From: Escherichia coli
GTDB taxonomy: Bacteria; Pseudomonadota; Gammaproteobacteria; Enterobacterales; Enterobacteriaceae
Length of the DNA: 64,000 nt
Direction: 5' to 3' (one strand)
NCBI RefSeq assembly: GCF_050920415.1
Contig: NZ_CP169309.1
Shown: positions 32,617 to 64,000 of the stretch, piece after piece
How positions within the stretch are numbered: position 1 is the stretch's first letter
Layout of the letters: each line of letters opens with the position of its first letter
Position numbers and translations under genes: made by a program
The notes under the pieces: model-generated
Databases searched by the model: none
The model's input: the letters and a program-made list of their open reading frames with translations, nothing else
What the model was told of the DNA's origin: nothing

Positions 32617-32860
32617 AGAAAAAAGGCGACAGATTACTCTGTCGCCTTTTTTCCTGACTCATAACCCTTAACGGGTCTTACAATCCTTGCAGGCCGCCAA
32701 CACACCCTGTTTTTCCATTAGCCGGAACAATCCGTGTTGATTCCATTTCCGTTTAATTACGTCTCCGGACGTTTGTCTTCCTGACAATCCTCTGTCTTCG
32801 CCTCCTGGCGCTCCTGACCCTCATCCTGAGTCATTGTTCCTGTTAGCGTCCTCGCTCTAT
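32617..32860 (-). ncRNA. csrC: CsrC small RNA (CsrA-sequestering)
   Basis: About 244 nt with many GGA motifs on the minus strand; 5' end ATAGAGCGAGGACGCTAACAGG and terminal hairpin GGCGACAGAGTAATCTGTCGCC + U-run match recalled CsrC; location in the engB-yihI intergenic region. Confidence 0.85.
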
Positions 32861-43315: not shown

Positions 43316-46208
<2,893 letters not shown>

Positions 46209-46391
46209 TCACAACCCGAAGATGTTTCTTTCGATTCATCATCGTGTTGCGAAAATTTGAGAGACTCACGAACAACTTTCGTTGTTCAGTGTTTCAATTT
46301 TCAGCTTGATCCAGATTTTTAAAGAGCAAAACTTCGCAGTGAACCTTTGCAGGTACACTCTGAAGTATTTTTTATTTAATCACTACAGAGA

Positions 46392-46467
46392 TGGTGGAGC
46401 TATGCGGGATCGAACCGCAGACCTCCTGCGTGCAAAGCAGGCGCTCTCCCAGCTGAGCTATAGCCCC
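46392..46467 (-). tRNA. alaT: tRNA-Ala (UGC), rRNA spacer tRNA
   Basis: Reverse complement GGGGCTATAGCTCAGCTGGGAGAGCGCCTGCTTTGCACGCAGGAGGTCTGCGGTTCGATCCCGCATAGCTCCACCA. Confidence 0.97.
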
Positions 46468-46509
46468 ATAACATGTAGTTAAAACCTCTTCAAATTTGCG
46501 GTGCAAATT

Positions 46510-46585
46510 TGGTAGGCCTGAGTGGACTTGAACCACCGACCTCACCCTTATCAGGGGTGCGCTTAACCACCTGAGCTACAAGCCT
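46510..46585 (-). tRNA. ileT: tRNA-Ile (GAU), rRNA spacer tRNA
   Basis: Reverse complement AGGCTTGTAGCTCAGGTGGTTA...CCCTGATAAGGGTGAGGTCGGTGGTTCAAGTCCACTCAGGCCTACCA. Confidence 0.95.
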
Positions 46586-46653
46586 GTAGAGGTTTTACTG
46601 CTCATTTTCATCAGACAATCTGTGTGAGCACTGCAAAGCACAGTTCTTTAAGG

Positions 46654-48190
<1,537 letters not shown>

Positions 48191-56115: not shown

Positions 56116-57600
<1,485 letters not shown>

Positions 57601-58417: not shown

Positions 58418-59911
58418 TCAGGCGCTTTTACCGTTGTTAAAAATAGCCAGTTCATCCCAGATGGCGTCAATATGCGCGACAACATCCGGATCTTTTTTGA
58501 TGGGACGTCCCCATTCACGCTGGGTTTCCCCTGGCCATTTATTCGTGGCATCCAGCCCCATTTTTGAACCCAGCCCGGAGACAGGCGAGGCAAAATCCAG
58601 ATAATCAATAGGCGTATTTTCGACCAACACCGTGTCCCGCGCCGGGTCCATACGGGTGGTAATCGCCCAAATCACATCGTTCCAGTCGCGTGCGTTGACG
58701 TCATCATCGCAAACGATCACAAATTTAGTGTACATAAACTGGCGTAAGAACGACCAGACGCCCATCATGACGCGCTTCGCGTGTCCGGCGTACTGTTTTT
58801 TGATTGTCACTACCGCCAGACGATATGAACAGCCTTCCGGCGGCAGGTAAAAATCGACAATTTCCGGGAACTGTTTTTGCAGAATCGGCACGAACACTTC
58901 GTTCAACGCTACGCCCAGTACCGCGGGTTCATCTGGCGGACGCCCGGTATAGGTGGAATGGTAAATCGCATCTTCACGCTGGGTAATATGCGTCACGGTG
59001 AATACCGGGAAACTATCGACTTCGTTATAGTAACCGGTGTGGTCGCCATACGGCCCTTCCGGCGCCGTTTCACCTTGTTCGATATACCCTTCCAGCACAA
59101 TCTCCGCACTGGCGGGCACTTCAAGGTCATTGGAGATACACTTCACCACTTCGGTCTTGGTGCCGCGCAGCAATCCGGCAAACGCATACTCTGAAAGCGT
59201 ATCCGGAACGGGGGTGACTGCACCGAGAATCGTGGCGGGATCAGCACCCAGCGCCACAGAAACCGGGAAACGTTCGCCCGGATGCGCCGCACACCACTCC
59301 TGATAATCCAGCGCGCCGCCGCGATGCGACAGCCAGCGCATAATCAGTTTGTTTTTACCAATTAGCTGCTGGCGATAAATGCCCAGATTCTGCCGCTCTT
59401 TATGCGGGCCGCGCGTCACTGTCAGCCCCCAGGTAATCAGCGGCGCGGCATCTTCCGGCCAGCAGGTCATAATGGGAATGCGATTGAGATCGACGTCATC
59501 GCCAGAGACGATTTTTTGTTGGCAGGGCGCACCACGCAGTCGCTTTGTCGGCATGTTCAATACTTGTTTAAACTGCGGCAGTTTATCAAACAGGTCGCGG
59601 AAACCTTTTGGCGGCTCCGGCTCTTTCAGAAAAGCCAATAATTTACCCACTTCACGCAGCGCCGAAACATCTTCCTGCCCCATGCCCATCGCCACGCGCT
59701 TCGGCGTACCGAACAGGTTGCAAAGCACCGGCATTGAGTACCCTTTAGGGTTTTCGAATAACAGCGCAGGCCCACCGGCACGCAAAGTGCGGTCAGCAAT
59801 TTCAGTGATTTCCAGATGCGGATCCACCGGGAGCGTGATACGTTTTAGCTCACCCTGCTGTTCAAGCAGCGTCAGGAAGTCGCGTAAATCGTTATATTTC
59901 ATGGCATCCAT
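58418..59911 (-). CDS. ubiD: 4-hydroxy-3-polyprenylbenzoate decarboxylase
   Basis: 497 aa UbiD family. Confidence 0.95.
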
Positions 59912-60032
59912 TGTAGCCTCTTAGTCTGCGCCCATTATACGGCGTTCATCTTTGCGATGCTGTAAATTTGTTAAATTAGCGTGAACTCTGACGGTATAAC
60001 GCAAACCGGGGAATATAATTAACTTAGCGTAA

Positions 60033-61345
<1,313 letters not shown>

Positions 61346-61386
61346 CCTGTACTCCATATGACAACCGCCCTGACGGGCGGTTGAAT

Positions 61387-62163
61387 TTATTCTTCAGTTT
61401 TTTCGCTTTCTGCTTCAGCGTCGTTTTCCTCTTCCCGGTTTCGACCCTTACCAACGTAAAAGCGTGAGAAGAAGACACCGATTTCAAACAGGCAGTACAT
61501 CGGGATCGCCAGCAGCGTTTGCGAGAAGACATCCGGCGGCGTCAGCAGCATCCCGACAACAAATGCGCCAACCAGCACATACGGACGTTTTTTGCGTAAG
61601 TCTTCTGGCGAGGTAATTCCCATCCAGCACAGCAGCACAATTGCCACCGGCACTTCAAAGGAGACACCAAACGCCATAAACAGCGCCATAACGAAGCTTA
61701 AATAGCTGGCGATGTCGGTGGATACCTGTACCCCTTCCGGCGCGGTATTGGCAAGGAAGCCAAATGCCAGCGGAAAGACCACAAAGTAGGCGAACGCCAT
61801 GCCGATATAAAACAACAGAGAGCTGGAAACCAGCAGCGGCACCACCAGGCGACGTTCATGCTTATACAGCGCTGGGGCGATAAACGCCCAGACCTGATAG
61901 AGAATCACCGGCGCTGACAGAATCAGCGACACCATAAAGGTCAGCTTGATCGGCGTAAAGAACGGCGAGGCCACGTCAGTGGCGATCATCGTTGAGCCTT
62001 GCGGCAACTGCTTGATCAATGGCGCGGATACCAGGTGATAGATGTCATTGGCGAAATAGACCAGACACAGGAATATCACGATCACCGCGATAATGCAGTT
62101 CAGCAGACGCTTACGCAGCTCAATCAGATGCGTGATAAGCGGTTGAGTATCTTCTACAGACAT
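61387..62163 (-). CDS. tatC: Sec-independent protein translocase subunit TatC
   Basis: 258 aa polytopic membrane protein. Confidence 0.95.
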
Positions 62164-62175
62164 GTTTACGGTTTA

Positions 62176-62682
62176 TCACTCGACGAAGGGGGAAGGTGCA
62201 GCGGTTTTCGGTTCAGCGTCCGCAGCAGGTTTTACCACCGGCTCTGGCGTGGTTTCTGGCTTCTGTTCCGGCGAACTGGCCTGCGTTTGTGCAGCGGCAG
62301 GCGTTACGCCTTCATGCGCAGCTTCATTATCTTTCACCACCGGGTTATGGATGGTGTGCGCTTCATCGCTCGCCTTTTCAGGATCGTTTGCAACGTAGGA
62401 ACGCTTCATCGACTCCGCGGCCTGGCGTAGTTCATCCATCGACGCTTTCAGTTCGGGCGTCAGGTTAGTGAGGCTCGCCTTTTCAACCTTTTTCAGGCTG
62501 TCCTGAAACTCCTGGAGTTTTAACTCCTGGGTCAGTTCGTTCTGCACCGTTGTCGCCAGTGAACGCAACGCGCGAATCCAGCCAGCTACCGTTTTTACCG
62601 CCACAGGCAGTCGTTGCGGCCCCAGAACGACGAGGCCGATGATGAACACCAATAGCAGTTCGCTAAAACCGATATCAAACAC
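62176..62682 (-). CDS. tatB: Sec-independent protein translocase subunit TatB (C-terminus differs from my recollection of K-12)
   Basis: [26 protein letters not shown]; 168 aa ending ...APSPFVE, see findings. Confidence 0.9.
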
Positions 62683-62685
62683 GGA

Positions 62686-62955
62686 TTACACCTGCTCTTT
62701 ATCGTGGCGCTTCGCGTCTTCTGTTTTAGCCTGTTCCTGATTCGTATCCGCCTGCTTATCGGCGATAGTTTTCGCAGTAAAATCAGCATCCTGACTGGTT
62801 TTATCCTGCTTTGGTTCATCATCGCTCATTGCTTTTTTAAAGCCTTTGATCGACGCACCAAGATCGGAACCGATGGAGCCGAGCTTTTTGGTGCCAAAAA
62901 GCAGTACAACGATGACGGCAATAATCAATAACTGCCAAATACTGATACCACCCAT
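62686..62955 (-). CDS. tatA: Sec-independent protein translocase subunit TatA
   Basis: 89 aa from [26 protein letters not shown]. Confidence 0.93.
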
Positions 62956-63033
62956 ACATGTTCCTCTGTGGTAGATGATGATTAAACAAGGCCGCATTAT
63001 ACGTTACACGGCCCGCCTTGAGCGATGAAAAAA

Positions 63034-64000
<967 letters not shown>

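Follow-up and report, generated by a model that had tools for sequence, protein, structure and literature searches.

A one-base insertion near the 3′ end of tatB as a probably inherited, functionally neutral allele of one rare Escherichia coli lineage

We examined the tat genes in a stretch of E. coli DNA of 64,000 nucleotides (hereafter the window), where tatB lies in the context tatA-tatB-tatC, followed by tatD, with intact partner genes (Table 1). TatA and TatC have protein accessions common to O157:H7 PV15-279, strain N96 and the complete genome NZ_CP169399.1, which closely resembles the window and to which we refer as the sibling record. Between positions 57400 and 64000 the window is 100% identical to that record, so the same tatC sequence is present there.

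Table 1. Features of the tat operon and of the altered tatB 3′ end in the window
Feature	Position	Strand	Remarks
tatA	62686..62955	(-)	Intact; 89 aa; WP_001295260.1 in the sibling record
tatB ORF	62176..62682	(-)	GTG start; 168 aa; residues 1-165 as in K-12 TatB, then FVE and stop
C5 run, site of the 1-nt insertion	62188..62192	(-)	G5 on the plus strand; C4 in other E. coli, by alignment
New tatB stop, TGA	62178..62176	(-)	In-frame TAA adjoining at 62175..62173; translation ends in PFVE and two stops
Ancestral tatB stop, TAA	62168..62166	(-)	Out of frame in the window; 2 nt before the tatC ATG
tatC	61387..62163	(-)	Intact; 258 aa; protein in the sibling record WP_000109943.1, the O157 and N96 accession
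tatD	60563..61345	(-)	Intact; last gene of the tatABCD cluster

The 3′ end of tatB was aligned directly with those of K-12 MG1655, O157:H7 PV15-279 and N96. In these three strains TatB has 171 amino acids and ends in APSPSSSDKP, whereas the protein encoded in the window has 168 and ends in APSPFVE. The corresponding DNA reads CCTT-CCCC-TTCG in the three strains and CCTT-CCCCC-TTCG in the window. The original prediction of a frameshift relative to K-12, which took SPSSSDKP as the K-12 terminus, was thus correct. It had identified the extra base as a T following a C5 run; however, since the run is followed by TT in either allele, the inserted base is a C, which converts C4 to C5. Comparison with N96 placed this indel at 62188 in the window. 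The insertion falls within or directly after codon 165, where CCT becomes CCC and proline is kept, and it replaces residues 166-171 (SSSDKP) by FVE while residues 1-165 are untouched. An early stop 12 nt before tatC had also been proposed, and the interval between the TGA and the tatC ATG (62163..62161) is indeed exactly 12 nt (62175..62164), compared with 2 nt for the normal TAA, which in K-12 does lie next to the tatC start as the prediction had it. K-12 TatB (b3838, YP_026270.1, 171 aa) therefore resembles the window protein in residues 1-165, in its place in a tatABCD operon, in its GTG start and in its score against the TIGR01410 model described below, and differs from it in having a C4 run, the SSSDKP tail, three more residues and a stop 2 nt rather than 12 nt before tatC. 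In the sibling record tatB is annotated by PGAP as a pseudogene with the note ‘frameshifted’, and the annotated span ends at the ancestral TAA (62166..62168).

We surveyed the C5 allele across 5,426 complete RefSeq E. coli genomes using a 121-nt probe spanning the site and a 41-nt probe for which seeding is possible only across the C5 run. The 121-nt probe found matches in 5,425 of these genomes, 5,271 of which were at least 99% identical to it; only one match covered the whole probe at 100%, the other listed matches spanning 120 nt. The 41-nt C5 probe matched exactly one genome, NZ_CP169399.1, which is that of strain MFDS1022581 from animal-source food in South Korea. All of the other 5,425 genomes were without C5, contrary to the possibility, raised with the original prediction, that K-12 and other E. 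coli might have the same sequence at this position. JGI metagenome contigs, scanned for exact copies of the 34-nt C5 allele, likewise gave 0 matches, in agreement with a rare allele.

A search of public protein sequences revealed the exact 168-aa TatB on 62 contigs (95 index blocks, mostly on contigs of 10-200 kb, from NCBI, ENA, Logan and UniRef). Its protein accessions include EGB59579.1, whose source names E. coli M863, as well as EGE62404.1, EGO6589012.1 and EGO7493063.1; these come from separate isolates and assemblies and share the same 168 amino acids. M863 is a member of Escherichia clade I (PMC4182557). We read 24 of the 62 contigs, and in all of them the neighbouring proteins were identical. 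One draft contig, GCA_015290155.1, carries C5 and contains CCTTCCCCCTTCG; when aligned with positions 59176-64000 of the window it showed 1 mismatch and 0 gaps in 4,825 nt (99.979% identity). Over the region as a whole, identity is ∼97% with K-12 and with most E. coli but rises to 98.5-99.4% in a handful of genomes. One of these is N96, the closest relative to have a normal tatB (about 98.7%). Judged by a single gene with its flanking sequence, the window strain would belong to a sub-lineage of Escherichia clade I in which the insertion is fixed. The 168-aa variant and wild-type TatB fall in the same 90% protein cluster. This cluster also holds a 145-aa ‘TatB’ from Shigella boydii Sb227 (P0012, ABB68309.1), which starts at normal residue 27 and is without the transmembrane helix; it represents either a disrupted 5′ end or an artefact of start-codon annotation.

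The reliability of the window assembly was assessed against the sibling record and N96. BLAST alignment with NZ_CP169399.1 (∼4997288-5061291) gave 5 mismatches and 12 gap positions over 64 kb, which ruled out that the two sequences are identical; the window therefore appears to derive from a near-identical sibling isolate, or from a different assembly or assembly version, of NZ_CP169399.1, with C5 present in tatB of both. All of the indel differences between the two are located in the rrn operon (∼43.7-47.8 kb) or in a copy of IS621, and their single-copy DNA differs by two substitutions only (22156 C/T in yihM and 39445 G/A in yihF), with no indels. The yihM and yihF products in the sibling record have recent, closely numbered protein accessions. 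When the window was compared with N96, the tatB site was the sole 1-bp indel in about 57 kb of single-copy sequence, so that no excess of such indels was seen in single-copy genes. The remaining indels outside rrn and IS621 were an 11-bp difference in yihU, which is a deletion private to N96, and differences of 7 bp and 8 bp in intergenic repeat units. In 100 kb of the sibling record sampled elsewhere (two samples of 50 kb), one CDS was flagged as frameshifted, and it lies in an already decayed gene cluster. A hypothetical CDS between yihI and yihA (∼32668-32834), marked ‘frameshifted; internal stop’ in the sibling record, was considered as a possible sign of an error-prone assembly, but N96 has the same flag in the same place and the CDS is therefore a shared relic that says nothing about assembly quality.

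Several other differences were noted in the course of these comparisons. The 11-bp deletion shifts the reading frame of yihU in N96 (L006 10008-10893; ∼9971 in the window), whereas the window gene, encoding sulfolactaldehyde 3-reductase, is intact. Relative to N96 the window has one extra GATGCCG unit at ∼30323, between yshB and hemN, and one fewer 8-nt unit (CACTGTAT-like) at ∼57616, between the IS621 copy and fre. A stretch at ∼870-1470 that carries yiiF gave no alignment to N96, which has no annotated yiiF between fdhE and yiiE, a difference of presence or absence.

Within the rrn operon (23S, tRNA-Ala, tRNA-Ile and 16S genes; 43700-47830, minus strand) 9 positions, mostly indels, differ from both the sibling record and N96, and 8 of these are found only in the window; 4 further differences are private to the operon of the sibling record. 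The window 16S gene has 2-nt deletions at ∼47211 and ∼47825, the latter inside GGGGAATATTGCACAATGG, a highly conserved stretch. The tRNA-Ile(GAT) gene (46510-46585) is reduced to 76 nt by a 1-nt deletion at ∼46563 (GGTTA-AGCGC) and is still detected by ARAGORN, compared with an annotated length of 77 nt in the sibling record and N96. The IS621 copy (IS110 family; 56170-57446) lies between fadA and fre, a site at which N96 has no IS621. Two 1-nt losses in homopolymers split its transposase into ORFs 56606-57253 and 56275-56505: as judged against an intact copy in N96, G4 has become G3 near 56517, as it has in the sibling record too, and C3 has become C2 near 56650-56652, in the window only. To judge from these alignments, the private differences in rrn and IS621 are probably consensus errors limited to multi-copy sequence.

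It is against this background that an error of assembly at tatB must be considered, with a true run of C4 and a normal TatB of 171 aa. The site is a homopolymer, the window does have private indels in rrn (9 positions, 8 of them window-only) together with the private C3-to-C2 deletion in IS621, and tatB of the sibling record was flagged as frameshifted by PGAP. A 1-nt change in a short homopolymer leading to a ‘frameshifted’ call is also what errors in long-read and pyrosequencing assemblies look like. Pyrosequencing is prone to errors in homopolymers, and some early assemblies that carry C5 may derive from it. However, unlike such errors, C5 in tatB is repeated across independent assemblies of one lineage and absent elsewhere. 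The allele or its 168-aa protein occurs on 62 contigs from several repositories, including those of M863 and the 99.98%-identical draft contig, and its presence in many independent assemblies of the same lineage indicates that it is inherited rather than an artefact of assembly. More than 5,400 other complete genomes, presumably obtained on many sequencing platforms, have C4. As 5,271 other genomes match the 121-nt probe at 99% identity or more, none of them with C5, the distribution follows descent, and a sequencing error driven by the local context is unlikely. Finally, no other 1-bp indel was found in about 57 kb of single-copy sequence, and all of the probable errors sit in multi-copy repeats. 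We therefore regard an assembly error at tatB as highly improbable. The suspicion of systematic assembly error that accompanied the original prediction probably holds in part, for the rrn and IS621 repeats; it is not supported for tatB or the single-copy genes, given the 62 contigs, the draft contig with C5 and the lack of any further 1-bp indel against N96.

If the insertion is real, it might be supposed to inactivate tatB, leaving a lineage that is Tat-deficient or that uses TatA or TatE in place of TatB. The PGAP note ‘frameshifted’ could be read in this way, and the wild-type tail is conserved within the genus, SPSSSDKP being present in TatB of E. ruysiae and E. albertii; this may point to a small role for the tail, or may reflect only the low divergence of these two species from E. 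coli. Several observations make inactivation scarcely credible. The changes are confined to residues 166-171, and probably no part of the protein needed for function is lost or scrambled. The transmembrane helix, the amphipathic helix and the helices that follow (residues 1 to about 96) are intact within a segment, residues 1-165, that equals K-12 TatB; these helix boundaries, and the prediction that the protein is random coil from residue 96 onward, are taken from a published study of TatB (PMC9436932). The NCBIfam equivalog model for tatB (TIGR01410) covers residues 2-80 and scores the C5 allele at 108.8 bits and wild type at 108.7, well above its cutoff of 56.5, and PF02416 (TatA_B_E) is recorded for the 168-aa TatB. 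TatB lacking 50 or 60 C-terminal residues showed export and quality control nearly identical to wild type, and some 50 N-terminal residues are enough for export of physiological substrates (PMC9436932, Sci Rep 2022). The hydrophilic C-terminal domain is also described as dispensable in a 2026 review (PMC13186574), which cites Lee et al. (2002, J Bacteriol 184:5871), so the earlier suggestion that the altered tail is probably harmless agrees with both sources. The engineered truncations resemble the window variant in that a hydrophilic, unstructured tail is lost or altered and the transmembrane and amphipathic helices are kept; they differ in removing 10-140 residues, whereas the variant exchanges six residues for three by a frameshift. 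In addition, both TatA and TatC are complete and match those of other E. coli exactly, and the allele persists in many isolates. The truncation studies in K-12 and our own comparisons thus suggest that C5 tatB is most likely a functionally neutral tail variant. The pseudogene label given by PGAP probably over-calls such a variant and reflects an annotation rule.

An effect on regulation rather than on the protein can also be imagined, in which the greater distance between the tatB stop and the tatC ATG, 12 nt in place of 2 nt, alters coupling of termination and reinitiation and thereby the TatB:TatC ratio. No clear Shine-Dalgarno sequence was read upstream of the tatC start, the nearest GAG being ∼17 nt upstream; tatC may thus depend on coupling, and a shift of the stop by 10 nt could change it. 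However, a distance of 12 nt is still short, and the predicted folding of mRNA at the tatB-tatC junction is weak and does not differ between the alleles (-5.8 vs -5.9 kcal/mol), for which reason we dropped a structural effect on tatC initiation. Persistence of the allele also argues against any strong effect, and a real allele that acts through coupling seems very unlikely to us. Very unlikely, too, is a broader proposal in which either TatB:TatC coupling has been retuned in a clade I sub-lineage, or +1 slippage of tRNA-Pro on CCC-CU yields two TatB isoforms. The CCC-C/U context for a programmed +1 frameshift is present, but relatives, having C4, would have no need of one. Transcriptional slippage was considered as well, but five C's in a row would be too short for it.

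Taken together, our preferred reading, to which we assign a probability of about 0.88, is that C5 in tatB is real, has been inherited within one rare E. coli lineage and is expected to be functionally neutral. Replication slippage is the most plausible way in which the C4 run at codon 165 would have gained its extra C. The frame of the last six codons would then shift, so that residues 1-165 are followed by Phe-Val-Glu in place of the Ser-Ser-Ser-Asp-Lys-Pro end, and translation would stop at the TGA-TAA pair 12 nt before tatC and not at the TAA 2 nt before it. The insertion appears to have become fixed in a lineage that includes the window strain, its sibling MFDS1022581 and the isolates whose TatB is identical to that of clade I strain M863. 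Since neither the transmembrane and amphipathic helices nor any other structured part of TatB is altered, and since tatA and tatC are intact, Tat export would be expected to be normal.

Public databases already contain the C5 allele, which is an ordinary variant of a familiar gene and opens no new biological question. Its value lies mainly in curation: a one-base homopolymer difference that resembles an error is a stable marker of a lineage, and automated annotation makes a pseudogene of a tatB that is very probably functional, with the result that the sibling RefSeq record seems to be without TatB. That the probable errors in the window are confined to the rrn and IS621 repeats is useful when other findings from it are read. 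For the organism itself, the C5 allele could mark a rare sub-lineage, apparently of Escherichia clade I.
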